A DNA stretch of 64,000 nt from Thermoanaerobaculia bacterium (lineage in GTDB: Bacteria; Acidobacteriota; Thermoanaerobaculia; UBA5066; Gp7-AA6): positions 37 to 64,036 of the forward strand of contig DATFQY010000191.1 of the NCBI GenBank assembly GCA_035263845.1. Direction: 5' to 3'. The notes beneath the pieces were generated by a model, which searched no databases, had not been told where the DNA came from, and saw only the letters and a list, made by a program, of their open reading frames with translations. Shown in pieces: positions 4,318-56,853 of this stretch (the first letter of the stretch is position 1; the number at the start of each line of letters is the position of its first letter). A program made the position numbers and the translations under genes.

Positions 4318-5084
4318 GCGTCGAACGTCTCGAAGCCGGTGACCTGGTCGGCGAGCCCGGCGGCGGCCGGCGAATTGGCGCGGGCCAGGGCCTCCGCCAG
4401 CGCGGCCATCGCGAGCGGCGGAATGTTGTTGGTCCGCGAAAGGTGCGTCGCGACGACGCGCTTCAAACCCGGCCAGCTCGAGCGGCGGATCGCCTCAGCG
4501 GACTGGCGGTTGGAGAGGTGCCCCCAGCCGCCCGAGATGCGCTGCTTGAGCGGCCACGTGTAGGGCCCGTCCCGGAGCATGTCCTCGTCGTGGTTGAACT
4601 CCAGGAGGATCGTGGTCGAGCCCTTCAGGAAGTCCACGAAATCTTCCTCCGCCCGCCCCAGGTCCGAGGCGATGACGACGCGGGCGTCGTCGGCCTCGAA
4701 GGCGTACGCGACGGACTCGTTGGCGTCGTGGGGCGTGGCGAAGGCGCGGAATCCCAGGTCCCCGATCCTCGACTCCCGCCGGGCGTCCACCCTCACGAAC
4801 GGGGAGAAGAGGTCTCCCTCCAGGCCGATCGCGTCCGCGGTCCCGGCGGTGGTGAAAATCGGGCACTCCCAGCGGGCGGAGAAGACGAGCGCGCCACTGG
4901 AGTGGTCGCCGTGCTCGTGCGTGACGAAGATGCCGCGGATGGACTCCGGCTCGATGCCGCGGGCGGCCATGCGCCGCTCGATCTCCTTCGCCGAGAGTCC
5001 CGCATCCACCAGCACCCTCGTCCGGCCCGATTCGACGACGCAAGCATTGCCGCCGGATCCGGACGCGAGGATGGACACGCGCAT
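4314..5084 (-). CDS. MBL-fold metallo-hydrolase
   Basis: HEHGDHSSG metallo-beta-lactamase motif; 256 aa. Confidence 0.75.
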   Translation of the reverse strand: MRVSILASGSGGNACVVESGRTRVLVDAGLSAKEIERRMAARGIEPESIRGIFVTHEHGDHSSGALVFSARWECPIFTTAGTADAIGLEGDLFSPFVRVDARRESRIGDLGFRAFATPHDANESVAYAFEADDARVVIASDLGRAEEDFVDFLKGSTTILLEFNHDEDMLRDGPYTWPLKQRISGGWGHLSNRQSAEAIRRSSWPGLKRVVATHLSRTNNIPPLAMAALAEALARANSPAAAGLADQVTGFETFDA

Positions 5085-8030: not shown

Positions 8031-8570
8031 TCACCAGTCCTTGTAGTAGGTGCCGTCGATGGCCCGCAGGTCAGAGAGGGAGAAGACGTCGTAGACGTTC
8101 TGGCCACCCCAGGACAGCGTGTCCGGTTCGTCCTGGAAGGACCTCATTCCCCACTCGTCCTTCTTGGTCATGGGGTCGGTCGGAACCCGCCGGAGAAACT
8201 TCTGCTTCTTGTCGAGCTGGCCAACGAGCGTGACCCCCTCGACCAGGGTCTTCAAGTCGGGCGGGTAGCCTTCCGAGCCGATCTTGACGGGGATCAGGCC
8301 GAGGTCGGAGTACTGCTTGTACTTGTCGATGGCGTCCCGCATCAGGCGGAGCTGGTAGCGCAGCTCCAGTTCGTCCTGGCGTTTGACGGTGTACCGCGCG
8401 ATCGGGACCGCCATGGAGGCGAGGATCGCCACCATCGCCGCGACCACGGCGAGCTCGACGATCGTGAACCCGGATTCGTGAGCCGTGAACCGTGAGCCGT
8501 GAGCCGCGATTGCGGCGACACGCTCCCTCCACGGCTCACGGCTAACGGCTAACGGCTTACGGATCGTCAC
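8031..8570 (-). CDS. GspG-like pseudopilin, second paralog, with an unusually long N-terminal leader
   Basis: ESGFTIVELAVVAAMVAILA plus VPTDP. The only in-frame start is a GTG overlapping the secretin stop, so the first roughly 30 codons are encoded by the palindromic heptamer element. Confidence 0.6.
   Translation of the reverse strand: MTIRKPLAVSREPWRERVAAIAAHGSRFTAHESGFTIVELAVVAAMVAILASMAVPIARYTVKRQDELELRYQLRLMRDAIDKYKQYSDLGLIPVKIGSEGYPPDLKTLVEGVTLVGQLDKKQKFLRRVPTDPMTKKDEWGMRSFQDEPDTLSWGGQNVYDVFSLSDLRAIDGTYYKDW
8477..8566 (-). repeat. Palindromic heptamer-array element, copy 1 (CCGTAAG x4 / loop / CGGCTCA x4)
   Basis: Read directly: four tandem 7-mers on each arm, with the arms complementary. 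It is near-identical apart from the loop to the copy at 25018..25108. Confidence 0.6.
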
Positions 8571-15266: not shown

Positions 15267-16481
15267 CTATCCCTTGATCTGCGACATGAGACGGAAGATC
15301 GGCAGATACACCGAGAGGAGGATCGTCATGATGACCCCTCCCATGATCACGAGGATCGCCGGCTCGACGAAGGAGATCACCCGCGCCAGCAGAAGGTCGA
15401 TTTCCTCGTCGTAGAACTCCGACACGGAGGAGAGCATCTCCTCCAGGGCGCCCGAGGCCTCGCCGACCTTGATCATCTCGATTGTCAGGTTCGTGAAGAT
15501 GCCCGTTCCCTCGAGGGCCCTCCACAGCTCGCCTCCCTCTCGGATCTTCGGGACGATCTCGCCGATCTGGCGCGAGACGAAGCGGTTGCCGACCGCCGCG
15601 GACGCGTTCTCCAGCGCCGGGACGAGCGGCGTGCCCCCTCCCAGGAGCGTCGCCAGGCTGCGCGTGAACTGAGAGATCGCGAAGCGGCGGAAGATGCCGC
15701 CGAGGACGGGGAGCTTCAGGATGAACGAGTCGCCCCACTCGGCGCCCCGCGAGGACTTCAGCCACCGCGTCGCGAAGAAGCCCCCGACGATCAGGACCAC
15801 GAGGAGGAGGAAGATGTTGCGCCGCAGGAACGTCGCGGAACCGATGACGATGACCGTCAGCAGCGGCAGCTCCGCCTTGAAGTCTCCGAAGAACTCCTGG
15901 AACTTCGGGATCACGACGGTCATCAGGATCGCGATCAGCCCGATCGAGAGCGCGATCAGGATGGCCGGGTAGACGAGCGTCGAGATGACCTTGCGGGTCA
16001 GCGCCATGATCGTGCGCTGGTACTTGACGTACCGGCGCAGCACGCTCTCGATCTCGCCGGACTTCTCGCCGGCTTTCAACGACGTCCAGTACAGCCGCGG
16101 AAAGAGGTCTCCCTGCTGCTCGAAGGCGTCGGAGATCGCGGCTCCGGCGTTGACCCTCTCCCGGACGTCCGCGAGGACGCGGCGCAGGACCGGGCTCTCT
16201 TGCCGCTCCAGCAGCAGCTCGAAGGAGTGGAGGACCGGCAGCCCGGCCTTCAGCAGCGCGATCAGCTCCTGGTTGAAGATCAGGAAGTCGCGCATCTTGA
16301 CGTGCCCGCGGCGGCGCCGACGGCCGCCCACCAGCGACAGGCCCTCGCGGCGGATCTCGAAGACATGCCCGCCGCGGCGCTCCATCTCCAGGCGCGCCGC
16401 CGTGGCGTCGGCCGCCTGGATCGCCTCCTCGGCCACCCTCCCGTCGGGCCATCCGACCTTGGCTCGGAACTCGCGGCTCAT
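15267..16481 (-). CDS. gspF: Type II secretion platform protein GspF
   Basis: 404 aa with duplicated GspF/PilC domains. Confidence 0.85.
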   Translation of the reverse strand: MSREFRAKVGWPDGRVAEEAIQAADATAARLEMERRGGHVFEIRREGLSLVGGRRRRRGHVKMRDFLIFNQELIALLKAGLPVLHSFELLLERQESPVLRRVLADVRERVNAGAAISDAFEQQGDLFPRLYWTSLKAGEKSGEIESVLRRYVKYQRTIMALTRKVISTLVYPAILIALSIGLIAILMTVVIPKFQEFFGDFKAELPLLTVIVIGSATFLRRNIFLLLVVLIVGGFFATRWLKSSRGAEWGDSFILKLPVLGGIFRRFAISQFTRSLATLLGGGTPLVPALENASAAVGNRFVSRQIGEIVPKIREGGELWRALEGTGIFTNLTIEMIKVGEASGALEEMLSSVSEFYDEEIDLLLARVISFVEPAILVIMGGVIMTILLSVYLPIFRLMSQIKG

Positions 16482-16484
16482 CGC

Positions 16485-17234
16485 CTAGCGCTTCTCCACC
16501 GACTTGCCCCCCGGCGCTCCGGGGCGGGCCGTCTCCTGCGCGAGCAGGATCAGGATCAGGGCGTTCTTGGAGCCTTCCTCCTTGGACGCCCCGACGACCA
16601 GCGTCTGGTTGAGCGTCACCGGCACGGAGGCGCGGTACAGGAGCGTGGGCTGCACGCGGCCCTGCTCGTCCTTCTTCAGCCTGGACAGAGCGAACGGCGA
16701 GAGCAGCAGCTCGTCGCCCGCCCCGGCCGGGCCGATGGTGAAGGTCAGGATGTACTCGTCGCCGAGCCGGTAGGAGACCGGCCGTCCCTCGACTCCCTGC
16801 ATCGTGGCGGAATCCAGGAGCGTGTAGTCGTTGAACTGGAACATGGATTTCAGCTTCGCCCCCAGACCGCCGATCTCGCGCGCCATGGACCCGGCGGGCG
16901 CGTCGGCGCGGGCACGCACGAGCTTGACCGCGAAGGTGAAGCCGCGCGGGGGAACGTCGAACTCGGAGAGGACCTTCGCGATCGTCTTCAAGTTCTCCTC
17001 CCGATCCGTGACGGTCATCGCATTCAGGCGCTGCGCCAGCGTGATCGAGGCCGAGTCGGAGAGGTGGGGACGGATCAGCAGGGCCGCCTCTTCGACCCGC
17101 TTGTACTTCAGCACGAAGACCCGGACCGCCGTCTCCGAGGCCGCCCCCGCCGGGGACGCGTTCTCCGGTCCCGGCAGCGCGATCGCGTCGAGCGACATGG
17201 CCACGAGGGCCGCGAAGAGAATTCCTTTTCTCAC
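16485..17234 (-). CDS. Periplasmic protein with a Secretin_N-like domain
   Basis: Signal peptide, then VRVFVLKYKRVEEAALLIRP...TVTDREENLKTIAKVLSEFD, which resembles the secretin N domain. No secretin C-domain. Confidence 0.5.
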   Translation of the reverse strand: MRKGILFAALVAMSLDAIALPGPENASPAGAASETAVRVFVLKYKRVEEAALLIRPHLSDSASITLAQRLNAMTVTDREENLKTIAKVLSEFDVPPRGFTFAVKLVRARADAPAGSMAREIGGLGAKLKSMFQFNDYTLLDSATMQGVEGRPVSYRLGDEYILTFTIGPAGAGDELLLSPFALSRLKKDEQGRVQPTLLYRASVPVTLNQTLVVGASKEEGSKNALILILLAQETARPGAPGGKSVEKR

Positions 17235-18649: not shown

Positions 18650-19966
18650 ATGTTTCTCTACCGAATCCTGTCGGTCCTGGCGCTGCTGGCCTACTCCCCG
18701 GTCGCCCTTTTCCGGTCGATGACCGGGCGGAAGAAAATGGGGGACGTCCGGGGCAAGCTGGGGCTGCTCCCCTACCCCGATCTGGACGGCGGAATCTGGG
18801 TCCACGCAGTCTCGGTCGGCGAGGTCGGGGTGGCGCGCAACCTGTTGACCGCGCTCTCGAAGCGGGCGCCGGCGGGCACGCGGCTCGGGCTGTCCGCGAC
18901 GACTGTCGCCGGCCTGGAAACGGCCCGCCGCACGTCGGTGGATCGCTGGCCGGTCTTCTCGTTCCCGCTCGACCTCGCGGGTCCGGTCGAGAAGGCCCTG
19001 GCGGCCGTCCGGCCGGGCCTCGTCGTCCTGACGGAGACGGAACTCTGGCCGCTCCTGATCGACCGGGCTGTCCGGCGAGGAGCCGGCGTCGCCCTGGTCA
19101 ACGGGAGGATTTCGGACCGGTCGCTGCGCCGTTACCGGCTCGTGCGGCGGTGGTTCGCACGGAGCCTGGAGCGGATTTCCCTCTTCGCGATGCAAAGCGA
19201 GGAGGACTCGAGGCGCATCCGGGAGCTTGGGGCGCCGGCGGACCGCGTCCTCGTAACCGGCAACGTCAAGTACGACCTCGCGCCGGCTCCCCCCTTCGCG
19301 GACGCCGCCCGGCTTTCGTCTCTCGCGGCCGGCCGGCCGGTCCTCGTCGCGGCTTCGACCGGGCCGGGCGAAGAAGCGATCGTGCTGGACGCCTGGAAGG
19401 GTTTGGAGTCGCGCACCGTGCTCGCGATCGCCCCGCGCCGCCCCGAGCGGTTCGAAGAGGTCGCCCGGCTGGTCGAATCGAAAGGCTTCGCGGTGATCCG
19501 CCGCTCGGACCCCGGCGCGCTCTCAAATCACAAATCACAAATCCCAAATCACAAATCTTCGGTCTACGTTCTCGATACGGTCGGAGAGCTCGCTTCGCTG
19601 TACGGCGAGGCGGCGATCGCCTTCATCGGGGGGAGCCTGATCCCCACCGGCGGCCACAATCCGATCGAGGCCTGGGCGCAAGGAGTCGCCGTCCTCGTCG
19701 GCCCGCACACTCAGAGTTTTCGCGAGATCACCGAGGCGGGCGAGAAGCAGGGAGTCCTCCACCGAGTGGCCGGGGGCGAGGAGCTCGCGAGGGCGTTCGA
19801 GGCCGCCGCCGCCGACCCCGAGGCCGCCGCCGCGCGAGGCGCCGCCGCTCGCGCGTTCGTCGCGAAGAGCCGGGGAGCGGCCGAGGCGACCGCGGAGGCC
19901 ATCGTCAAGCTCCTGCCCGCCGAGCCGGTTCCCGCCAAAGAGAAGTCGCGAGCTGCGCTCCCGTGA
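18650..19966 (+). CDS. waaA: 3-deoxy-D-manno-octulosonic acid transferase
   Basis: KdtA-like over its full length (VSVGEV..., LDTVGEL...GGSL...GGHNP). Carries an in-frame heptamer-repeat segment. Confidence 0.85.
   Translation: MFLYRILSVLALLAYSPVALFRSMTGRKKMGDVRGKLGLLPYPDLDGGIWVHAVSVGEVGVARNLLTALSKRAPAGTRLGLSATTVAGLETARRTSVDRWPVFSFPLDLAGPVEKALAAVRPGLVVLTETELWPLLIDRAVRRGAGVALVNGRISDRSLRRYRLVRRWFARSLERISLFAMQSEEDSRRIRELGAPADRVLVTGNVKYDLAPAPPFADAARLSSLAAGRPVLVAASTGPGEEAIVLDAWKGLESRTVLAIAPRRPERFEEVARLVESKGFAVIRRSDPGALSNHKSQIPNHKSSVYVLDTVGELASLYGEAAIAFIGGSLIPTGGHNPIEAWAQGVAVLVGPHTQSFREITEAGEKQGVLHRVAGGEELARAFEAAAADPEAAAARGAAARAFVAKSRGAAEATAEAIVKLLPAEPVPAKEKSRAALP
19524..19560 (-). repeat. GAAGA-(TTTGTGA)4 element, in-frame inside kdtA in reverse orientation
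   Basis: aaatcacaaatcacaaatcccaaatcacaaatcttc encodes SNHKSQIPNHKS. Confidence 0.6.
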
Positions 19967-23532: not shown

Positions 23533-24555
23533 TTGACGCCACGCGTGCCGCGGAAACGGCTGCTTTCCGTCATCGACGGCTTCGCCGGGAGGCGCCTCGT
23601 CGTGGCCGGAGACTACGTCCTCGACCGGTTCCTCTACGGGCATCCCAAGCGCGTCAGCCGCGAGGCACCGGTCCTGATCCTCCGGTTCTGGAAGGAGGAG
23701 CACCTGCCCGGCGGCGCCGGAAACACCGCGGCCAACGTCCGGTCGCTCGGGGGCGTCCCGATCCCCGTCGGGGCGGTGGGAAAGGACGACGCCGGCGCGA
23801 GACTGCGGGAAGCGCTGGCCGGACGCGGGATCGACACCGACGGACTGCTGGCGGCACCGGACTACGGGACCCCGACGAAGACGAGGATCCTCGCGGGAGC
23901 TCCGCACGGGATCAAGCAGCAGGTCGTCCGCTACGACCGCGAGTCGAATCTCCCGGAAGACTCCGCGCTCGCCGCGAGGATCGCCGACGCGCTCGAAAGG
24001 AGCGCCGCCGGAGCCGACGCGGCGGTCCTCTCGGACTACGGTTACGGCGCGGTCCCGAAGGACGCGAACGCAATCCTGCGCGGGAGCCTTCCCTCCGGCG
24101 CGCCGATCCTGGTGGATTCGCGCCACGGTCTGACCGGCTTCGCGGGCGCGGACGCGCTGACGCCCAACGAGGAAGAGCTCGAGGAGTGGATCGGCAAGCC
24201 GCTCGGCGACTCCGCCGAGGAGCTTGAGAGCGCCGCGCGCTCGCTCCAGAAGGCCGTGGCCGCCCGGATCGTCCTCGTCACCCGCGGCTCGCGGGGGATG
24301 GCGCTCTTCCAGGATGGCGCCTCGCCAGTCTCGATCCCGGTCCACGGGACCGACCAGGTCGCCGACGTCACCGGGGCCGGGGACACGGTGCTCGCGACCT
24401 TCTCGCTCGCGCTCGCCTCCGGAGCCTCGCCGCTCGAGGCCGCGCTGCTGGCCAACTTCGCCGGCGGCGTGGTCGTCATGAAGATGGGGACGGCGACGAT
24501 CACCCCGGAGGAGCTCCGAGACGCGGTCGGTTCGGATCGAACGATCCTCGAATGA
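23533..24555 (+). CDS. hldA: D-glycero-beta-D-manno-heptose-7-phosphate kinase (HldE domain I / HldA)
   Basis: PfkB carbohydrate kinase (TGAGDT). Sits next to the adenylyltransferase half. Confidence 0.8.
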   Translation: MTPRVPRKRLLSVIDGFAGRRLVVAGDYVLDRFLYGHPKRVSREAPVLILRFWKEEHLPGGAGNTAANVRSLGGVPIPVGAVGKDDAGARLREALAGRGIDTDGLLAAPDYGTPTKTRILAGAPHGIKQQVVRYDRESNLPEDSALAARIADALERSAAGADAAVLSDYGYGAVPKDANAILRGSLPSGAPILVDSRHGLTGFAGADALTPNEEELEEWIGKPLGDSAEELESAARSLQKAVAARIVLVTRGSRGMALFQDGASPVSIPVHGTDQVADVTGAGDTVLATFSLALASGASPLEAALLANFAGGVVVMKMGTATITPEELRDAVGSDRTILE

Positions 24556-25034
24556 CGGGAGGCCTCTCGAAGATCCTCTCCCGCGAGGAGCTTCTCGAAG
24601 CGGCGAAGCGCCAGGGCGCCGCGGGCCGCTCGATCGTGTTCGCCAACGGCGCGTTCGACCTGCTCCACGTGGGCCACGTCCGCTACCTCGAGGCGGCGCG
24701 CCGCGAGGGGGACTGGCTCGTGGTCGGCGTCAACTCCGACCGGTCGGTCCGCGCGTCCAAGGGGGACGGCCGCCCGATCCTGCCGGAGTCCGAGCGGTCG
24801 GAGGTCGTCGCTGCCCTCCGGTGCGTGGACGCCGTCGTGATCTTCGACGAGGACTCTCCGGCGGAGCTGATCGCGGCGCTGCGCCCGGCGGTCCACGCCA
24901 AGGGCACCGACTACACTTCCGAGTCGGTTCCCGAGCGCTCGGTCGTCGCCTCTTACGGGGGCCGAACTGTGATCGTCGGGGACCCGAAGGACCACGCCAC
25001 GACCGACCTGATCGAACGGATCCGTAAGCCGTAA
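24552..25034 (+). CDS. hldC: D-glycero-beta-D-manno-heptose-1-phosphate adenylyltransferase (HldE domain II / HldC)
   Basis: Cytidylyltransferase HxGH motif (GAFDLLHVGHVRYL). ATGA overlap with the kinase gene. Confidence 0.8.
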   Translation: MTGGLSKILSREELLEAAKRQGAAGRSIVFANGAFDLLHVGHVRYLEAARREGDWLVVGVNSDRSVRASKGDGRPILPESERSEVVAALRCVDAVVIFDEDSPAELIAALRPAVHAKGTDYTSESVPERSVVASYGGRTVIVGDPKDHATTDLIERIRKP

Positions 25035-25108
25035 GCCGTCAGCCGTCAGCCGAAGCCATGCTTGATACTGGGACTCCGGCTCACCGCTCACGGCTCACGG
25101 CTCACGCG
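25018..25108 (+). repeat. Palindromic heptamer-array element, copy 2
   Basis: ccgtaagccgtaagccgtcagccgtcagccg / 25-nt loop / cggctcaccgctcacggctcacggctcacg. It contains the hldC stop and ends 2 nt before the waaC-like ATG. Confidence 0.6.
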
Positions 25109-25110
25109 TC

Positions 25111-26100
25111 ATGAGGATCCTGATCGTCCGCCTCTCGTCGCTGGGCGACATCATCCACACGCTCCCGCTGGCGCTGAACGCGCACATGGGCGGCGCCCGG
25201 GTCGCGTGGCTGACGGAGCGCGGATACCGGGGGCTGCTCGAAGGAAACCCGTGCATCGAGCGGCTCTTCCTCGCCGACACGAGGCGATGGCGCGCCAACC
25301 TCGCTTCGATCTCACACTGGAAGGCGGTGGTGGAGCTGCGCCGCGGGCTGAAAGAGTTCGACCCCGAGGTGACTCTCGATCCGCAGGGGCTCTGGAAGTC
25401 GGCCCTCCTGGCGAAGCTGGCGGGCTGTCCCGTGGTTGGGTTCTCCGCGGGGTCCCGCCGGGAGCCCTCCTCCGCCGTGCTCGCCGCGACGGGCGTGGAC
25501 ATCGCGCCGGAGGCGGAGCACGTCGTGGACCAGAACCTTTCCCTGCTCGCCCCGCTGGGAATCCCGGTCGCTCGCCGAGCCCCGGATGCCCGCTACCTTC
25601 TGGAGCCGGAAGACTCCCGGGCCGCCGCCTTCCTCCGGACACTGCCGACTCCCTTCGCGCTCTACCATCCCGGCTCGGCCCGCTCGACGAAATCCTGGGG
25701 GGAGCGCAACTACGCCCAGCTCGCCGAGCAGCTGCACAAGAAGCTCGGGCTCTACCCGGCGATCTCCTGGGGGCCGGGAGACGAGCGTCGCGCCGAGCGG
25801 CTCGGGAGACTCCTCCCCTACTCCGCGAAGATCCCCGCGGTCCATTTTCGCGGCCTCGCCCAGGTCCTCTCGCGCGCGAGCCTGTTCGTCGCGGGCGACA
25901 CCGGGCCGGTCCACCTCGCAGACGCGATCGGCGTCCCGGCGCTGGCGCTCTTCGGCCCCGACGCGTACAAGCGCAACCTGCCCGAGCGCAACCGGCCGTA
26001 CCGGGGCGCCGCCTTGAGTTACGATCAGGCGGCGTCGGTCGAAACCGTCGCGCGCAAGGCCGTGGAGCTCGTCGAGAACGCCGGAACGATCGAGGGGTGA
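25111..26100 (+). CDS. ADP-heptose:LPS heptosyltransferase I (GT9, WaaC-like)
   Basis: MRILIVRLSSLGDIIHTLP...GDTGPVHLADAIGVP. Confidence 0.7.
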   Translation: MRILIVRLSSLGDIIHTLPLALNAHMGGARVAWLTERGYRGLLEGNPCIERLFLADTRRWRANLASISHWKAVVELRRGLKEFDPEVTLDPQGLWKSALLAKLAGCPVVGFSAGSRREPSSAVLAATGVDIAPEAEHVVDQNLSLLAPLGIPVARRAPDARYLLEPEDSRAAAFLRTLPTPFALYHPGSARSTKSWGERNYAQLAEQLHKKLGLYPAISWGPGDERRAERLGRLLPYSAKIPAVHFRGLAQVLSRASLFVAGDTGPVHLADAIGVPALALFGPDAYKRNLPERNRPYRGAALSYDQAASVETVARKAVELVENAGTIEG

Positions 26101-26807
26101 GGACGCTTTCCCTGGCGCTCCTTCTGATCGCCGCGTCTCCCGCCGAACAGGACAAGCCCGAGCCGCCCTCGTTCCTCGGCGAAAAGCTGCGCTTCGCCAT
26201 GTCCATCCTCGGGGTGGCCGGAGGAGAGCTGACGCTGTCGGCGGCGCCGGCAGAGCTCTCGGGCAAGCCGGCCTGGAAGTTCGAGATGTCGGTCGTCTCC
26301 AACGACTTCCTCTCCAAGTTCTACCTGGTGCGGGACACGATCGTGTCGTGGATCGATCCGACCTCCTTCCGCTCGCTGCGGTACGAGAAGCACTCCGTCG
26401 AAGGCAAGCGCGTCCGCGACGAGCTGACCGAGTTCGATTACGAGAAGGGAGTCGCGGTCCTCGACGGGACGCCGCTGTCGCTCGACCAGGCGACGCTCGA
26501 CACGCTCTCCTCCGTCTACTACCTGCGGACGCTCGCCCTCGACGCGGGAAAGCCTCCGTCGCTTCACGTCTTCTCGGGCAAGCCGCACGTGCTCGACGTC
26601 GAGGTCCAGGCCAGAGAAACGATCGAGGTGCCCGCCGGAAAGTTCCAGACCATCCGCGTCGAGCCCAAGAGCGCCGGCAGCAGCCTCGTCGGCAAGAACC
26701 TCATCCTCTGGCTGACGGACGACGCGAGGAAGATCCCGGTTCAGCTTCGATCGAAACTCAAGGTCGGCACACTTGTCGGGAGGTTGAAGTCGATCGAAAC
26801 AAAATGA
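26097..26807 (+). CDS. DUF3108-like secreted protein
   Basis: Signal peptide; GTG start overlaps the upstream stop. Position after heptose genes fits where this family is commonly found. Confidence 0.5.
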   Translation: MRTLSLALLLIAASPAEQDKPEPPSFLGEKLRFAMSILGVAGGELTLSAAPAELSGKPAWKFEMSVVSNDFLSKFYLVRDTIVSWIDPTSFRSLRYEKHSVEGKRVRDELTEFDYEKGVAVLDGTPLSLDQATLDTLSSVYYLRTLALDAGKPPSLHVFSGKPHVLDVEVQARETIEVPAGKFQTIRVEPKSAGSSLVGKNLILWLTDDARKIPVQLRSKLKVGTLVGRLKSIETK

Positions 26808-26885
26808 GCAGTTTGTGATTTGTGATTTGTGATTTGTGAACAGGGCGGAAAGGCCGACTTCTTGCCCTGATCAGAAATCACCAAT
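26808..26885 (+). repeat. (TTTGTGA)4-ACAGGGCGGAAAGGCCGA hairpin module, right after a stop codon
   Basis: Read directly. The heptamer run places TGA in all three frames. The downstream GAAATCACCAATCCCTCAC is partly complementary to it. Confidence 0.6.
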
Positions 26886-28762: not shown

Positions 28763-28836
28763 GGTGGGTGTTAGGTCCTAGGTGGTAGGAAAGCCCCGCT
28801 TCCGGGCCTACCACCTACCACTTGCCACCTAACACC
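28763..28836 (+). repeat. Heptamer-array palindrome (GGTGGGT GTTAGGT CCTAGGT GGTAGGA / loop / CCTACCA CCTACCA CTTGCCA CCTAACA)
   Basis: Read directly. Lies between the pilB stop and the pilT start. Confidence 0.5.
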
Positions 28837-28907
28837 TTGCGGGTAAACCGGTAGGCTTTCCTTTCGGCCGGCGAGCGGCTAAACTAACGCACTTCCCTAA
28901 GGGACCG

Positions 28908-32942: not shown

Positions 32943-34381
32943 GCGGCGCGCGGCTCCTGATCGTGGACGACGAGGCGTCGATCCGCGACATGCTGGCCTT
33001 CTTTTTCCACAAGCGAGGCTTCGAGGTCCTGACCGCCTCGAACTACGCCGAGGGCTCGGCCTCCGCGCTGCGCTCCTCGCCCGACCTGATCCTCTGCGAC
33101 ATCAAGATGCCCGACGGCAACGGGCTGGACCTGCTCCGCAAGACCAAAGCCGAGAACCCCAAGACGCCGGTCATCATGATCACCGCGCACACATCCGCCA
33201 AGGACGCGATCGACGCGATGAAGGCCGGCGCCATCGACTACATCTCCAAGCCGTTCGACGTCGAGGAGCTGGGGCTGCTGGTGGACCGCGCGCTCGGCGA
33301 GAAGCAGCTCCAGGACGAGAACATCTACCTCAAGCAGGAGCTCGCGGCCAAGTACACCTTCGCCAACATCATCGGCAAGGGATCGCGGATGCAGGAGATC
33401 TTCCGCACGATCGAGAGGATCGGCCGGGTCTCCTCGACGGTCCTGCTGACGGGCGAGAGCGGGACGGGCAAGGAGCTCATCGCGCGGGCGATCCACTACA
33501 CGTCGATCCGCAAGGAGAAGAAGTTCGTCTCGATCAACTGCGGCGCTCTGCCGGAGACGCTGCTCGAGTCCGAGCTCTTCGGCCACGAGCGGGGAGCCTT
33601 CACCGGCGCGGTCAAGGAGAAGCGAGGCCTCTTCTCGGAGGCGGACGGCGGGACGCTGTTCCTGGACGAGATCTCCGAGACCACCCCGACGATGCAGGTC
33701 AAGCTCCTCCGGGCGATCCAGGAGAAGCTGATCCGGAAGGTCGGCGGCAACGAGGAAACCAGCGTGGACGTCCGCATCATCGCGGCGACCAACAAGGACT
33801 TGAACGACCTCGTCTCCTCGCAGCGCTTCCGCGAGGACCTCTTCTACCGGATCAACGTCATCCCGATCGCGCTGCCGCCGCTGCGCTCGCGCGTGGAGGA
33901 CATCGCCCCCCTGACGCAGCACTTCATCGGGATGATCTGCAAGGAGCAGAGGATCCCGGAGAAGAAAATCTCGACGGAGGCGATGCGGCTCCTCGAGGCG
34001 TACCCGTGGCCGGGCAACGTCCGGGAGCTCGAGAACACGCTGGAGCGGACGGTCGCCCTGGAGGGAGGACCGGTCATCACGGCGTCGAGCCTCCCCGAGG
34101 CGATCGCGCTCGGCGTGCGGACGCGCGTGCCCGACTTCGAGAGCCTTCCCGCCGAGGGGATCAACCTGGAGGCGTACCTCGAGGCGGTCGGCAAGCGGCT
34201 CATGCGCGAGGCGCTCGACCGCTGCGACGGGGTCCAGACGAAGGCCGCGGAGCTGCTGCGGATGTCCTTCCGCTCCTTCCGCTACTACGCCAAGAAGTAC
34301 AACCTGGTCCGGAAGGAAGACCTCTACGAGGACGAGTCCGCGACGCAGCCCGCCGAGCCCGCGGAGATGGAAGGAAACTGA
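32939..34381 (+). CDS. pilR: Sigma-54-dependent response regulator (PilR-like, NtrC family)
   Basis: REC domain, AAA+ sigma-54 activator (GESGTGKE, GAFTGA) and a C-terminal HTH. Confidence 0.85.
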   Translation: MSGARLLIVDDEASIRDMLAFFFHKRGFEVLTASNYAEGSASALRSSPDLILCDIKMPDGNGLDLLRKTKAENPKTPVIMITAHTSAKDAIDAMKAGAIDYISKPFDVEELGLLVDRALGEKQLQDENIYLKQELAAKYTFANIIGKGSRMQEIFRTIERIGRVSSTVLLTGESGTGKELIARAIHYTSIRKEKKFVSINCGALPETLLESELFGHERGAFTGAVKEKRGLFSEADGGTLFLDEISETTPTMQVKLLRAIQEKLIRKVGGNEETSVDVRIIAATNKDLNDLVSSQRFREDLFYRINVIPIALPPLRSRVEDIAPLTQHFIGMICKEQRIPEKKISTEAMRLLEAYPWPGNVRELENTLERTVALEGGPVITASSLPEAIALGVRTRVPDFESLPAEGINLEAYLEAVGKRLMREALDRCDGVQTKAAELLRMSFRSFRYYAKKYNLVRKEDLYEDESATQPAEPAEMEGN

Positions 34382-34845
34382 TCCGAATCCTCACCGTCTC
34401 GCTGGTCTTCGTCGCCGCCTGCGGCGCGGCACCCACGCCGGCGAAGCCGTCCCCCACGCCGGCCGCCGCCGCGGGCCCCAGGGTCGCGATGCCGTCGGGC
34501 GCCGTCTACAAGCTCGAGGTGGCGCGCACCCCCGAGGAACAGGCGCAGGGGCTGATGTTCCGCGAGAGCCTGCCTGAGCGCGGCGGGATGATCTTTCTCT
34601 TCAACGACAAGTCCTCTCACCGTTTCTGGATGAAGAACACGATGATCCCGCTCGACATGATCTGGATGGACGAGGCCGGGAAGGTCCTCTTCATCTCCCC
34701 CGACACGCCGCCTTGCAAGGCCGATCCCTGCGCGAGCTACGGCCCCGAGACTCCCGCCGCCCAGGTCCTGGAAATCGCCGGAGGGATGGCGGTCAAGGAA
34801 AAGATCGTCGTGGGGTCAGTCCTTCGCTTCGAGAACGTGAAGTGA
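34378..34845 (+). CDS. DUF192-family lipoprotein
   Basis: Lipobox LVFVAAC and conserved DUF192 core (LDMIW.D). No in-frame ATG; start is probably CTG or another non-ATG codon. Start uncertain. Confidence 0.5.
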   Translation: MIRILTVSLVFVAACGAAPTPAKPSPTPAAAAGPRVAMPSGAVYKLEVARTPEEQAQGLMFRESLPERGGMIFLFNDKSSHRFWMKNTMIPLDMIWMDEAGKVLFISPDTPPCKADPCASYGPETPAAQVLEIAGGMAVKEKIVVGSVLRFENVK

Positions 34846-34912
34846 AGAATCTGTGATTTGTGATTTTGTGATTTGTGAACAGGGCGGAAAGCCGATAGCG
34901 CGGCTGCCCTCA
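34846..34912 (+). repeat. GAAGAATC-(TGTGATTTGTGATTTTGTGATTTGTGA)-ACAGGGCGGAAAGCCGA hairpin module
   Basis: Read directly. Begins right after the DUF192 stop codon. Confidence 0.6.
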
Positions 34913-37595: not shown

Positions 37596-38471
37596 ATGCC
37601 CTCCGTTCGCGTCGCGGTTTTTCCGGCAGCTGGCCTCGGGACCAGGTTCCTCCCGGCCACCAAGGCGCAGCCCAAGGAAATGCTGCCGCTGGTGGATCGG
37701 CCGCTCGTCCAGTACGTCGTGGAAGAGGCGTGCGCGGCGGGGCTCGACCGCATCGTCATCGTGACCGGACGCGGGAAGAACGCGATCGAGGACCACTTCG
37801 ACACCTCCTTCGAGCTGGAGAAGATGCTCGAGGAGCGGGGCAAGAGCGAGCTGCTCGAGCAGGTCCGCGAGATCTCGGGCCTCGCCCGGGTCTCTTACGT
37901 GCGGCAGAAGTCGGCGCTCGGCCTGGGCCACGCCGTGCTCCAGGCGAGGGACCTCGTCGGCCACGAGCCGTTCGCCGTGATGCTCGGCGACGACATCGTG
38001 GACGCCGAGGAGCCGTGCATCGGCCAGATGATCCGGGTCTTCGAGCGCCGCGGGAATCCCGTCATCGCGCTCCAGGAGGTCCCTCGCGAGCAGACGCGCC
38101 AGTACGGGATCGTGGCGGCGCGGCCGGCTGCGGGCGAGAGCCGCGTCGTGGAGATCCAGGACATGGTCGAGAAGCCCAGCCCCGAGAAGGCGCCGTCCAA
38201 CCTCGCCATCATTGGAAGGTACCTGCTTCCGCCCGAACTCTTCGGGATCCTGGAGGCAACCGCGGCCGACGTCGGCGGAGAGATCCAGCTCACGACGGGC
38301 CTGAGAGCGCTCTTGAAGCAGAGGCCGATCGACGGCTACCTCTTCGAGGGGAAACGCTACGACGCCGGCGACAAGCTGGGCTTCCTCGAAGCGACCGTGG
38401 AGTTCGCCCTGAAGCGCCACGACCTCGGAGCGCCCTTCCGGAAATACCTGAAGACCCTGAAGCTCGAGTGA
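37596..38471 (+). CDS. galU: UTP--glucose-1-phosphate uridylyltransferase
   Basis: AAGLGTRFLPATKAQPKEMLPLVDRPLVQYVVEEA. Confidence 0.88.
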   Translation: MPSVRVAVFPAAGLGTRFLPATKAQPKEMLPLVDRPLVQYVVEEACAAGLDRIVIVTGRGKNAIEDHFDTSFELEKMLEERGKSELLEQVREISGLARVSYVRQKSALGLGHAVLQARDLVGHEPFAVMLGDDIVDAEEPCIGQMIRVFERRGNPVIALQEVPREQTRQYGIVAARPAAGESRVVEIQDMVEKPSPEKAPSNLAIIGRYLLPPELFGILEATAADVGGEIQLTTGLRALLKQRPIDGYLFEGKRYDAGDKLGFLEATVEFALKRHDLGAPFRKYLKTLKLE

Positions 38472-38510
38472 AGAAGAATTTGTGATTTGTGAATTGTGAT
38501 CAGGGCCAAC
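38472..38510 (+). repeat. GAAGAAT-(TTGTGATTTGTGAATTGTGA)-TCAGGGCC element right after the galU stop
   Basis: Read directly. Confidence 0.55.
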
Positions 38511-45707: not shown

Positions 45708-45818
45708 GGGTCCAATGGACCTTGGACGAACCTTTGACCTTGGACTTGGGACTTTCGACACACTGGACCTTGGACTTTGGACGTGCGACCGACCTTGGAC
45801 CTTGGACCTTGGACCGTC
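45708..45818 (-). repeat. Degenerate (GGTCCAA)n / (CTTGGAC)n heptamer array, about 14 units
   Basis: Read directly. Lies between the tandem TGATGA stops of the permease and the lolA-like start. Confidence 0.55.
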
Positions 45819-49294: not shown

Positions 49295-49392
49295 GGAAGC
49301 GCATGGGGCCTGGTGGCTCTCGCGGACTTCAAATCCGTCGGCGTCGCGGTTATGCCGGGACGGGTGGGTTCGATTCCCACACGCTTCCGCCA
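49295..49392 (+). tRNA. selC: tRNA-Sec (anticodon UCA)
   Basis: Folded by hand: 7-bp acceptor stem GGAAGCG/CGCTTCC, 6-bp D-stem with 4-nt loop, anticodon loop CTTCAAA, long variable arm, T-arm GTGGG-TTCGATT-CCCAC, G discriminator and CCA. Confidence 0.75.
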
Positions 49393-50904: not shown

Positions 50905-50981
50905 GGGGCTGTAGCTCAGTTTGGGAGAGCGCCTGAATGGCATTCAGGAGGTCGACGGTTCGATCCCGTTCAGGGCTTTCG
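50905..50981 (+). tRNA. tRNA-Ala-like copy with a disrupted acceptor stem (probable pseudo-tRNA)
   Basis: Its first 66 nt are identical to tRNA-Ala(GGC), but the 3' acceptor strand CAGGGCT cannot pair with GGGGCTG and no CCA is present. Confidence 0.4.
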
Positions 50982-51090: not shown

Positions 51091-51167
51091 GGGGCTGTAG
51101 CTCAGTTTGGGAGAGCGCCTGAATGGCATTCAGGAGGTCGACGGTTCGATCCCGTTCAGCTCCACCA
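51091..51167 (+). tRNA. tRNA-Ala (anticodon GGC)
   Basis: Canonical cloverleaf, G3:U70 identity pair, CCA encoded. Confidence 0.9.
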
Positions 51168-54340: not shown

Positions 54341-55942
54341 TCAGCGCGGCCCCGCCGGTCCCCGGAAGCGCCCCCGGGCCCGAAGGACCCAGTAGGCGCC
54401 GAGGAAGAGGAAGAAAGCGAGCGTCGTCCAGAGGACCAGCTCGTTGGGAGGCAGGGCGAAGACGACCGTGATGAAGAGGATCCAGGCGACCGCGACGATG
54501 TTGACGAAGACCGCCTTCCGGCCGAGGTTCCAGGGGGCGGTCTCGCGCGTCGCGAACTCGCCCCGCCCGCGCAGGCGGTTCCTCAGGTTCAGGAAGATCG
54601 GGATGCCGTAGGCCAGGTAGAGCGTGATGGTGCTCGCGGAGGTCAGGACCGTAAAGGCCGCCGCGTAGAGCGAGACGGCGACGGCGAGCGAGCTCGCCGT
54701 CAGGATCGCGGCGACCGGCACTCCCCTCGAGGCGGAGACGACGGCGAGCCGCCGGGATCCAGGCATGCCGCCGTCGCGGGCGAAGGCGAACCACATGCGG
54801 GCCATCGAAGAGACCGAGGAGGAGCCGCAGAGCCACATCGCTCCGCCGATGATGACCGCGACCAGGTTGGCGAGCGTGCGCGACAGGTTGCCGTCCGCGA
54901 TCGCGAGAACGGGGTACGGGTCGCGCGCGACGGCCGCGATGTCGCCTCCGGGGATCGTCCAGGTCAGGACGACCAGGAGGACGTAGCCGACGACGGCCGA
55001 GACCGCGACGGAAAGGAAGATCCCCCAGGCCGAGTTCAACCTCGCCATCCGCGTCTCCTCGGCCATGTGCGCCGACGCGTCGTAGCCGGTGTAGGTCCAC
55101 TGCGCCTGGAGCAGCGCGAGGACGAAGACGAGGAAAAACGGGGCCGCGCGGTAAACCTCGGAGAGGCCCGGCAAGAGCGCGAAGAGCGGAGAGGGGACCT
55201 TCATGTCGCCGAAAACGAGGGCCGGGACCATCCGGCCGCCGCCGAAGTCGGCCGAGGAGGCCTCGAGGGGGTTGACGGTGTTGACGAAGCGGAAGAGGAA
55301 GGCGAGGTCGTTGTGGTACTTCCCGAGAACCGCCAGCAGGAAGACGATGACCGCGCCGCCGGCGATGTGCCAGTAGACCGAGAGGTCGTTCAGGCGCGCC
55401 GTCAGGCGCACGCCATAGATGTTGATAACGACCTGCGGAATCATGAGCAGGACCATCACGAAGAGCTGGAAGCCCCAGCCCGTGACCGATCCGAAGAGGG
55501 GCAGGCGCAGGTCCGCCGGGAGACCCAGGATCCGGGTCGCCGCGCCGATGAAGTAGATCGCGGCGGCGACATTGATCCCGGCGGTGATCGTGACCTGGCC
55601 GACCATGTTCAGCCACGCGGTCGTCCACGCCCATCCGCGTCCCCCGAGCCGGAACGCCCAGAAGTAGAGGCCGCCCGCGGTCGGATAGGCCGAGGCGAGC
55701 TCCGCCATCGAGGCGGCGATCGCGAGGGTGAGCACGGAGGCGACGGGCCACCCGACGGTGTTGACGATCGGCCCCGCGAGCTTCAGCCCGTAACCGTAGA
55801 GGAGGACCGCCCCCGTCAGGACCGAGATGATCGAGAAGCTGATCGCGAAGTTGGAGAAGCCCCCCATCTCGCGGAGGAGCTGCTGCGTATAGCCGAGACG
55901 CTTCAGGTCCTCTTCGTCTTGTCGTAGGACCTGGTCGTTCAA
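54341..55942 (-). CDS. Amino acid/polyamine permease (APC family)
   Basis: 12 TM segments, APC signature near the N-terminus. TTG start, uncertain. Confidence 0.8.
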   Translation of the reverse strand: MNDQVLRQDEEDLKRLGYTQQLLREMGGFSNFAISFSIISVLTGAVLLYGYGLKLAGPIVNTVGWPVASVLTLAIAASMAELASAYPTAGGLYFWAFRLGGRGWAWTTAWLNMVGQVTITAGINVAAAIYFIGAATRILGLPADLRLPLFGSVTGWGFQLFVMVLLMIPQVVINIYGVRLTARLNDLSVYWHIAGGAVIVFLLAVLGKYHNDLAFLFRFVNTVNPLEASSADFGGGRMVPALVFGDMKVPSPLFALLPGLSEVYRAAPFFLVFVLALLQAQWTYTGYDASAHMAEETRMARLNSAWGIFLSVAVSAVVGYVLLVVLTWTIPGGDIAAVARDPYPVLAIADGNLSRTLANLVAVIIGGAMWLCGSSSVSSMARMWFAFARDGGMPGSRRLAVVSASRGVPVAAILTASSLAVAVSLYAAAFTVLTSASTITLYLAYGIPIFLNLRNRLRGRGEFATRETAPWNLGRKAVFVNIVAVAWILFITVVFALPPNELVLWTTLAFFLFLGAYWVLRARGRFRGPAGPR

Positions 55943-55952
55943 GAAAGAGTTC

Positions 55953-56010
55953 CTTAGTCCTTGGTCCTTGGTCCCTGGTCGTGGTCGCCCCGACCAAGGA
56001 CGAAGGACAA
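55953..56010 (-). repeat. Heptamer-array palindrome (CTTAGTC CTTGGTC CTTGGTC CCTGGTC / GACCAAG GACGAAG GACAAGG GACTAAG)
   Basis: Read directly. Lies between the SDR stop and the permease start. Confidence 0.55.
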
Positions 56011-56025
56011 GGGACTAAGCACGCT

Positions 56026-56799
56026 TCATTCCGGGGTGGTGTAGGCCACTGTGATCCCGCCGTCAACGGTCAGGGCGACCCCGTTGATGTAGGAGGACTC
56101 GTCGGAGGCGAGGAAGAGGGCCGCGTGGGCGACCTCCGAGGCCTTCGCGAGGCGGCCGAAGGGAATGTGGACCATCCTCCGCGCGCGGCGGGCGGGATCT
56201 CCCAGCAGCTCCGCCATCAGCGGCGTGTCCACGGGGCCCGGGCAGAGCGCGTTGACGCGGATGTTGCGGCGCGCGAACTCGACGGCGGTCTCGCGGGTCA
56301 GCGACAGGACGCCTCCCTTGCTCGCCGTGTAGGCGATCTGGGGCGTCGCGGCCCCCATCAGGGCCACGAAGGAGGCCGTGTTGACGACGCTTCCCCCGCC
56401 CGCGCGAAGGAGCGCGGGGATCCCGTACTTGCAGCCGAGGAAGACCCCCTTCAGGTTGATGTTCATCACCAGGTCCCAGGTCTTCTCGTCGGTCTCCAGG
56501 ACTCCCCCGTCGTTGCCCGGAAAGATTCCCGCGTTGTTGAAGAGCACGTTCAGCTTCCCGAAGGCCTTCTCCGCCGAGGCGACCATTCCCTCGACGTCGG
56601 CCGCCTTCGAGACGTCAGCATGGACGAACTTCGCCTTCCCGCCGGCAGTCTCGATCTCGCGGACCGTCTGCCGCCCGCCTTCGTCAGCGACGTCCGCGAC
56701 GACGACGCTCGCTCCCTCTTTCGCGAAGAGCAGCGAGGCCTCGCGGCCGATACCGCTGCCTCCGCCGGTGATCAACGCAACCTTGTCTTTCAGCCTCAT
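56026..56799 (-). CDS. SDR family oxidoreductase
   Basis: TGGGSGIG and YTASK motifs, with NNAG. Good RBS. Confidence 0.85.
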   Translation of the reverse strand: MRLKDKVALITGGGSGIGREASLLFAKEGASVVVADVADEGGRQTVREIETAGGKAKFVHADVSKAADVEGMVASAEKAFGKLNVLFNNAGIFPGNDGGVLETDEKTWDLVMNINLKGVFLGCKYGIPALLRAGGGSVVNTASFVALMGAATPQIAYTASKGGVLSLTRETAVEFARRNIRVNALCPGPVDTPLMAELLGDPARRARRMVHIPFGRLAKASEVAHAALFLASDESSYINGVALTVDGGITVAYTTPE

Positions 56800-56816: not shown

Positions 56817-56853
56817 CGTCAATCACAAATCACAAATCACAGATTCTTCCTCA
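56817..56853 (-). repeat. GGAAGAATC-(TGTGATTTGTGATTTGTGA) element right after the glutamine-synthetase-like stop
   Basis: Read directly. Confidence 0.6.

Follow-up and report, generated by a model that had tools for sequence, protein, structure and literature searches.

A probable long-lived, frame-constrained heptanucleotide microsatellite in a variable loop of the Kdo transferase WaaA of Thermoanaerobaculia

We analysed a 64,000-nucleotide (nt) stretch of DNA, referred to here as the window, from a Thermoanaerobaculia bacterium (assembly GCA_035263845.1, contig DATFQY010000191.1), with a focus on a tandem array of 7-nt units that lies in frame within waaA (kdtA), the predicted gene for the 3-deoxy-D-manno-octulosonate (Kdo) transferase of lipopolysaccharide (LPS) synthesis. 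We conclude, with a probability of roughly 0.7, that the array is a heptanucleotide microsatellite of long standing, constrained by the reading frame and situated in a permissive, disordered loop of the WaaA C-terminal domain. An array in this loop is shared, with turnover of the repeat unit, by orthologues down to ~60% protein identity in a syntenic locus. Essential genes are expected to be cleared of microsatellites with a unit length not divisible by three, and the unusual features of the waaA array are its long, clade-wide persistence in an essential enzyme and the quantisation of its changes to three units.

Results

A heptanucleotide array lies in frame within waaA

The open reading frame (ORF) at 18650..19966 on the plus strand encodes 438 amino acids (aa), matches Pfam family PF04413 (Kdo transferase N-terminal domain; E 7.8e-50), and has a stop codon that overlaps the start of lpxK. 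Its best homologues are annotated as Kdo transferases of Thermoanaerobaculia or Acidobacteriota, and the order of genes at the locus (sigma factor, anti-sigma factor, waaA, lpxK, LpxL-like acyltransferase, GT9 heptosyltransferase) is the same in every relative that we fetched. An AlphaFold2 model of the protein, built from a 21-sequence alignment, has a mean predicted local distance difference test (pLDDT) score of 86.6, and the best Protein Data Bank match of this model found by Foldseek is WaaA of Aquifex aeolicus (2xci; E 2e-21). P262-R263 align to P211/R212 of the Aquifex enzyme and N337/E340 to N273/E276, and the residues P262-R263, G312-E313-L314 and G335-H336-N337...E340 are invariant in our alignment A1. 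Judged by family match, cytidine monophosphate (CMP)-binding motifs, predicted fold and linkage to lipid A genes, the ORF is the Kdo transferase WaaA/KdtA (GT-B), in agreement with an earlier reading of the DNA made from its letters alone (hereafter, the sequence-only reading). The motifs considered were PRxPERF, which includes the catalytic Arg, the loop ahead of GEL, and GGHNxxE.

The array occupies positions 19524..19557 of the plus strand and reads CAAATCA CAAATCA CAAATCC CAAATCA CAAATC (34 nt), so that it consists of CAAATCA units with a single variant unit, CAAATCC. Tandem Repeats Finder assigns it a period of 7, 4.9 copies, 92% matches and a score of 61. Codon 292 of waaA begins at 19523, and the array is read in frame as S292-N-H-K-S-Q-I-P-N-H-K-S303; the translation around it contains RRSDPGALSNHKSQIPNHKSSVYVLDTVGEL, just as the sequence-only reading had it. 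That reading placed an in-frame heptamer array at 19524-19560 of waaA. We confirm the array, which includes the reported 32-nt string (19526-19557) and lies within an intact ORF, but not its end, since 19560 is 3 nt beyond the last repeated position. In the waaA orientation (AATCACA)3 is read without a stop codon as AAT CAC AAA TCA CAA ATC ACA, and because 7 and 3 have no common factor this single reading spans all three phases, which bears out the claim that no frame contains a stop codon in this orientation. Read in the opposite orientation, the array meets a TGA within 12 nt. The unit is AT-rich (29% GC in a genome of 68% GC), and local GC content at the array falls to 0.55, compared with ~0.70 for the gene. 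We rejected the possibility of an assembly artefact because an independent metagenome contig from the JGI (L081, sample 3300010366), which is 99.85% identical to the window over 6,696 nt, carries a 34-nt array identical in both length and sequence.

The array occupies a loop that is repetitive in most orthologues

The array falls within a variable loop, residues D287-S304 (19508..19561, plus strand), that is bounded by the RRS and VYVLDTVGEL blocks. In the AlphaFold2 model this loop is a low-confidence coil that joins strand 281-283 to strand 304-307 in the C-terminal Rossmann-like domain, with pLDDT below 50 at residues 292-299. In alignments with two WaaA chains of solved structure, 4bfc and 2xci, a gap of 6-15 residues coincides exactly with the array. 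Strand 304-307 runs into D309-x-x-G312-E313-L314, which aligns to the F247-G248 cytosine pocket of Aquifex WaaA; from the topology of the Rossmann fold we infer that the loop is at the strand end opposite the nucleotide site. The modelled coil supports the proposal of the sequence-only reading that the array is tolerated as a loop insertion.

From PRxPERF to GEL the query has 53 aa, and the genome loci reach 64 aa; the same interval measures 43-46 aa in a short-loop subclade of Thermoanaerobaculia, in Gammaproteobacteria and in other Acidobacteriota. Homologues elsewhere do therefore have the short linker that the sequence-only reading ascribed to them, and alignment of orthologues reveals the extra in-frame segment that had been predicted, with a size of ~8-10 aa. 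Loop length ranges from 8 to 38 aa among 120 database homologues. At least three self-matches at a 7-aa offset were found in 83 of 142 orthologue loops, compared with a mean of 13 and a maximum of 23 for shuffled loops, and no more than 21 of the 142 loops self-match at any other offset. Examples of the repetitive loop peptides are NHKSQITNHKS, IQNPKSKIQNP, IRNPKSEIRN, LNSQLSTLNS, LDSRLSTLDS and GLGTRDSGL. The orthologous position is thus occupied mostly by repeats, not by unrelated, non-repetitive sequence; nor does a single fixed loop extend across the clade, the group closest to the query being fairly stable at 18 aa.

The DNA that encodes these loops differs among relatives, whose loci and proteins we denote by L and P numbers, respectively. 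The waaA loop contains (AAATCCA)4.9 and (CTCGGGA)4.6 in L001, AATCCGA heptamers in L004 and L207, (ACTCACA)4.3 in L006, (TCCAAAC)4.4 and (CTCTCAA)4.7 in L082, and CGGGACT and AATCACC units in L210. Many units are a single substitution apart and can be arranged in one series running through AATCACA, AATCCCA, AATCCAA and AATCCGA, and a second running through AATCACA, ACTCACA, ACTCTCA and ACTCTCG; AATCCCA occurs in the window's own waaA array. The length of the unit itself can change, since the loop in L023 (3787-3843) has an octamer array, (ATCACCCG)4, that encodes the 8-residue period ITRSPDHP; peptides resembling this one occur in P0083, P0088, P0093, P0094 and P0102. Where two arrays are paired in an orthologue (GGGACTC/AATCCAA; TCCAAAC/CTCTCAA), we considered whether their units are complementary, and by inspection they are not.

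Near-identical alleles differ by whole steps of three units

L085 and L086 differ by a single gap of exactly 21 nt (three units) inside the repeat tract; the corresponding proteins, P0020 and P0013, are 97.8% identical outside the loop and have loops that differ by 7 aa. This exact difference substantiates the earlier suggestion that the array is expandable, and differences of 7 aa in the loop also separate P0003 from P0004 and P0017 from P0075. Other pairs have diverged further within the loop: P0027 and P0020 are 97.5% identical outside it and have unrelated loops (SPGLGTRDSGLDNPGGIQNPKSKIQNPPP versus SPDPAATNHKSL), and P0065 and P0070 are 98.8% identical outside loops of 26 and 36 aa. The L084 loop has (GGGACTC)4 and (AATCCAA)4.5 at the place where L085 and L086 have (AAATCAC)1-4, and the flanks of these three alleles have 0-9 mismatches per 100 nt, with no rise beside the loop. 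We rejected import by homologous recombination as the source of the difference in arrays between L084 and L085/L086: flank divergence shows no local rise that would mark such an event, although a very short tract is possible. Alleles thus differ in their arrays while the flanks stay near-identical; evolution of the loop far outpaces that of the gene, and only the arrays are affected. The waaA arrays are all at most 34 nt long, with fewer than five units each, whereas intergenic arrays in the same loci reach 46-86 nt, and are longer still in metagenomes. The window and L081 show no difference in the array.

These comparisons bear on whether the peptide itself has been selected, for instance as a lineage-specific linker that serves in regulation or partner binding. 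Long retention of the loop, and its constant 18 aa in the nearest group to the query, would fit such a role, but we regard it as scarcely credible: both sequence and length differ wholly between proteins that are 96-99% identical elsewhere, the peptide is no more than the local heptamer read through its three phases, model confidence is low at residues 292-299, and neither a nested subclade nor any outgroup has the loop insertion. Most likely, the loop peptide has no required sequence and is neutral for the enzyme.

They bear equally on whether waaA is a contingency locus, in which slippage by one or two units would shift the reading frame and switch Kdo transfer, and hence the LPS core, off and on. 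Gain or loss of units in numbers not divisible by three does shift the frame of this LPS gene, and intragenic, frameshifting heptanucleotide simple sequence repeats (SSRs) are known, such as (AATTTTG)14 in hmw1A and (AACAACC)8-13 in a TonB-dependent gene (PMC2651432). Moreover, waaA is frameshifted near the loop in two metagenome-assembled genomes, L024 (3700-3900) and L027 (3780-3990). These two alleles have several scattered indels, however, and no clean 7-nt change, so that they are uninformative as evidence for phase variation; we suspect that the frameshifts are assembly or consensus errors, possibly from long reads (we assume the platform), although they may be real out-of-frame alleles. 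All other alleles that we examined are in frame, although a protein database favours intact ORFs. The waaA tracts are short (fewer than five units) and often interrupted, whereas known switches have at least 8 units and known phase-variable 7-nt tracts 8-38 units, and viability normally depends on WaaA, which acts at the cytoplasmic face (PMC6286764). Phase variation of waaA is thus quite improbable.

The array site is old

We built a neighbour-joining tree of WaaA, rooted with eight outgroup sequences. In this rough tree, repeat-bearing loops are found on the basal branches and on most others, and the group with short loops (8-10 aa) is nested among them. The simplest reading would be one early gain of an array, followed by loss in the short-loop group. 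The sequences nearest to the query (P0001, P0002, P0005 and P0006; 70-100% identity) all have 18-aa loops of the NHKSQI type, from which we conclude that the waaA copy is old.

The unit of the waaA array recurs elsewhere in the window. The 14-mer AATCACAAATCACA, with up to two mismatches, has 12 overlapping matches at five places, compared with 0.01 expected from dinucleotide-preserving shuffles. The four places other than waaA are intergenic: (TTTGTGA)x4 at 26812..26839 (plus strand), which begins 4 nt past the stop of ORF 25062..26807; (TGTGATT)x3.7 at 34852..34878 (plus strand), which begins 6 nt past the stop of ORF 34006..34845 and is followed by ACAGGGCGGAAAG; (ATTTGTG)x3.3 at 38478..38500 (plus strand), which begins 6 nt past the stop of a gene ending at 38471; and (TGTGATT)x3 on the minus strand at 56821..56841, between the stop of one minus-strand gene (56851) and the start of the next (56801). 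All four stand in the stop-containing orientation relative to their flanking genes, 4-9 nt past the upstream stop, and any (TTTGTGA)n array of at least three units puts a TGA in all three frames. In the hairpin at 26812 (z-score -3.7), the last units of the array and a degenerate AAATCAC arm pair with each other, and CAGGGCGGAAAGG lies in the loop between them. A scan of metagenomes for (TTTGTGA)3 yielded 120 loci, from which we analysed 46 arrays, those on contigs with a GC content of 60% or more. An inverse AATCACA-like arm lies within 120 nt of 25 of these 46 arrays, 4 share an apical motif of the type AGGGCG[AG]AAAG, and, where upstream sequence sufficed (39 arrays), 14 abut the stop codon of a coding-like ORF. 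As a separate observation, ACAGGGCGGAAAG follows two of the four (TTTGTGA)n arrays in the window, and also such arrays in the unrelated metagenome contigs L105, L109, L175 and L087.

The sequence-only reading held that the waaA array and the intergenic arrays are one element. They do have the same unit, but the waaA array has neither an inverse partner arm nor an apical loop, and so does not share the hairpin architecture of the lineage's intergenic copies. A recent jump of the intergenic TTTGTGA hairpin element, or of one of its arms, into waaA in reverse orientation would account for the recurrence of the unit at five places in the window, for its occurrence as an AATCACA-type unit in frame in unrelated genes of other contigs (see below), and for a GAAGAAT flank shared by three of the intergenic copies, which has a counterpart, GAAG-AT, at the equivalent end of the waaA copy. 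We consider such a jump very improbable. The array site is common to orthologues across the clade, so the waaA copy is not recent; the close relatives all have the array, and only a distinct nested subclade is without it. Loop length is equal in the 99.85% identical strain and in orthologues with 70-77% identity. Positions 19524-19557 have no second arm, apical loop, target-site duplication or terminal repeats. The GAAGAAT flank, which we had entertained as a defining feature of the element, was not found at any of the 46 high-GC metagenome copies and was rejected. As regards the copy in waaA, then, the proposed mobility is not supported, the site being old and syntenic and having neither a partner arm nor element ends.

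Period-7 arrays are abundant in the lineage and occur in frame in other genes

The window has nine period-7 arrays and, at comparable thresholds, none of periods 4-6 or 8-12. We counted 17 arrays in 172 kb from 27 Thermoanaerobaculia loci, versus one in 361 kb from 53 loci of other bacteria. In the syntenic relatives (L082 1-21359 and L207-L210), stretches of 17-21 kb have 8-16 period-7 arrays each; these occupy many of the intergenic gaps, frequently with overlap of a stop codon, and the units in L082 and L207 include some of the TAACTGA type (TAACTGA, AACTGAG). This family-level clade of Thermoanaerobaculia (Acidobacteriota) has a strong and specific excess of period-7 arrays. The waaA array has the hallmarks of a heptanucleotide SSR: at least three head-to-tail copies beyond chance, whole-unit steps in copy number between relatives, and a lineage with an excess of this period.

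In-frame heptamer inserts are not unique to waaA, since two ORFs on other high-GC metagenome contigs carry them. A UvrA-family ORF in L177 (421-3354, minus strand) has (AATCACA)3 in frame, ADHKSQITNHKSPP, in the linker between its two ATP-binding cassette (ABC) ATPase halves, and an ORF of the impB/mucB/samB family (Y-family polymerase) in L122 (6561-8408, minus strand) has an AATCACA-type unit in frame three times; L122 and L081 come from one JGI contig series (Ga0126379). In addition, L084 has (GGACTCG)n at 4457-4487, in frame in the N-terminal tail (DSGLGTRDSG) of the LpxL-like acyltransferase encoded two genes past waaA, an array that is absent from the orthologue in the window. Arrays are also found at a similar distance downstream of waaA in L001 (5400-5435), L027 (5410-5437) and L003 (5040-5060); the frame was checked only in L084. 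A protein search with six NHKSQIT repeats returned only spurious ORFs of 34-74 aa that run over intergenic arrays, and such a search is insensitive to inserts of 1.5-2 peptide repeats.

We compared the waaA units of 11 loci with the other arrays in the same and in different genomes. The units match same-genome arrays in 14 of 72 comparisons and other-genome arrays in 83 of 828 (permutation P ~0.04), with the qualification that the 11 loci are related and not independent, have from 1 to 15 other arrays each, and include some arrays that are orthologous. In L207, for example, waaA has AATCCGA-type units and a pure (CGAAATC)5 array lies 8 kb away. This matching is suggestive only; it would be compatible with copying between loci or with a process specific to the unit.

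A selected role at the level of nucleic acid would also connect these sites, if the factor or process behind the intergenic arrays, perhaps a copying mechanism or a protein that binds RNA or DNA, acted in waaA as well, so that persistence of the array there would not be neutral. Arrays have stayed pure in many lineages that have diverged; their units come from a limited shared set, with 10% matches between genomes and the enrichment within genomes described above; and a CCTACCA array and a GCCGTAA/GCTCACG hairpin keep both position and unit across genomes with WaaA proteins only 64-65% identical, this conservation of some intergenic arrays being a hint of function. The waaA array itself is predicted to be unstructured on both strands (fold z-scores -0.2 and +1.4), and no promoter- or terminator-like site is predicted there. 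In the window, matches to Rfam at the gathering threshold are limited to tRNAs and tRNA-Sec, with no other known RNA family. One subclade has lost the waaA array and is otherwise normal, the unit varies widely among orthologues, contrary to expectation for a sequence-specific site, and the statistical signal is weak and drawn from genomes that are not independent. We therefore think a selected role of this kind unlikely.

Discussion

A proposed frame-constrained microsatellite in a permissive loop

We propose that an early member of the clade acquired an array in this loop, in the sole orientation free of stop codons, and that the array would later have turned over by replication slippage. The reading frame would be kept only by changes of three units (21 nt, 7 aa); since only such changes keep the essential enzyme in frame, viable alleles would hop between roughly 2, 5 and 8 units. 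Contraction to ~2 units followed by regrowth to ~5 would re-homogenise the array on whichever unit variant survived, so that arrays would remain pure while the unit drifts (AATCACA, AATCCCA, AATCCAA, AATCCGA, ACTCACA, ACTCTCA). Selection would hold the tract below five units per array and remove variants that are out of frame.

Several observations weigh against a microsatellite as the whole explanation. The AT-rich unit of the waaA array recurs at the four other sites in the window, in the intergenic hairpins of relatives, and in the UvrA-family and Y-family polymerase ORFs; because the same AT-rich unit recurs in high-GC genomes, slippage from random local sequence is insufficient, and the spread of this unit among sites is unexplained by slippage alone. 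The closer match of waaA units to arrays of their own genome hints at copying between loci or a unit-specific process. A change from AATCACA to AATCCAA requires two substitutions per unit, plus homogenisation, between alleles that are 3-5% diverged, which is fast. The single near-identical strain, represented by L081, carries the window's array unchanged. Lastly, the neighbour-joining tree is rough, so that an array may have been gained several times rather than in one ancient event.

A more novel, though improbable, candidate is an undescribed, lineage-wide system of heptamer arrays with a dedicated mechanism for copying or homogenising them, or with a factor that recognises heptamers. Such a system may consist mostly of inverted pairs that form long hairpins, set at stop codons or a few bases away in many gaps between genes of the loci examined, and drawn from a small vocabulary of units common to genomes. 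If it exists, the in-frame arrays in waaA, the LpxL-like acyltransferase, the UvrA-family protein and the Y-family polymerase would be by-products of it, and permissive protein loops would be recurrent landing sites.

Relation to known repeat systems

An excess of heptanucleotide SSRs in prokaryotes has been attributed to polymerase slippage, with 7 nt proposed to match the footprint of the polymerase, according to the accounts in PMC4679880 and PMC4692102. As summarised there, the SSRs described by Mrazek and co-workers (2007) resemble the arrays studied here in that 7-nt tandem units are over-represented, mostly intergenic, variable between relatives and ascribed to slippage; the case of waaA differs from that summary in that one coding site is occupied clade-wide and change is quantised to three units by the reading frame. 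TAACTGA direct repeats, which are found in marine Beggiatoaceae, cyanobacteria and Bacteroidetes, contain stops in one orientation and encode a 7-residue repeat in the other (MacGregor, 2015; PMC4679880). Like the arrays in our lineage, they abut start or stop codons and are translatable in reverse, as LSVISYQ there and NHKSQIT here. One unit dominates the genome in those organisms, whereas many units coexist here, often as inverted pairs, and the in-frame case in an essential enzyme is backed here by comparative evidence.

The GGGAATC/GGGGAYT repeats of Xanthomonas and Nostoc (Rehm, 2015; PMC4692102) are likewise a lineage-specific intergenic excess, with positions that are kept while length and sequence vary, and some form inverted pairs; those repeats are G-rich and prone to form quadruplexes, whereas the AT-rich unit in waaA has no run of G. 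Tandem heptanucleotide repeats in the cyanobacterium Calothrix PCC7601 are cited in the same source (PMC4692102). The intragenic heptanucleotide SSRs of Haemophilus influenzae (PMC2651432) are similar in that a 7-nt tract lies within an ORF and any change other than by a multiple of three units shifts the frame. Those tracts have 8-14 units, reside in surface or accessory genes and have out-of-frame alleles; by contrast, the waaA arrays have fewer than five units, lie in a core LPS enzyme, and yielded no clean out-of-frame allele among those examined. Our search of the literature for tandem repeats in Thermoanaerobaculia, or for heptamer repeats in Acidobacteria, returned nothing relevant, and we found no paper describing the heptamer arrays and hairpins that occupy many intergenic gaps of these genomes.

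The waaA array provides a clean natural example of frame constraint acting on repeat dynamics. The loop varies far more than the remainder of WaaA does, and the site is a potentially sensitive strain marker for an uncultured soil lineage. Sites of this kind may interfere with the alignment of sequences, the clustering of proteins and long-read assembly in this lineage.

Other arrays and RNA genes in the window

Several further period-7 arrays in the window are arranged as inverted pairs. Inverted (CGTGAGC)n and (ACGGCTA)n arrays at 8463-8562 are predicted to form a long hairpin (z-scores -6.1 on the plus strand and -6.3 on the minus strand), as are inverted (CCGTAAG)n and (CGGCTCA)n arrays at 25022-25106 (-4.9 and -8.0, respectively). 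The latter hairpin folds better on the minus strand by 19 kcal/mol, even though the genes on either side lie on the plus strand. The final 13 nt of ORF 24552..25034 lie within its first arm, which provides the TAA stop of that ORF. This is the GCCGTAA/GCTCACG hairpin mentioned above, and it recurs in L208 at 16059-16152 and 16633-16730. The CCTACCA-type array follows a T2SSE-family gene, with position and unit kept between the window (28807-28840), L207 (20542-20619) and L210 (20367-20435), and the relatives that keep it have WaaA proteins about 64-70% identical to the query. On the minus strand, inverted (TCCTTGG) and (CCAAGGA) arrays lie between two minus-strand genes at 55940-56030 (hairpin z-score -6.9), the second arm of which sets AAGGA ~9 nt ahead of a TTG start at 55942. 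About 12 GTCCAAG-type units are found at 45730-45815, directly after the stop of the upstream minus-strand gene. The Rfam matches in the window are a tRNA-Sec (70.6 bits) and two ordinary tRNAs, at 49295-49388, 50905-50978 and 51091-51164, which are unrelated to the array.

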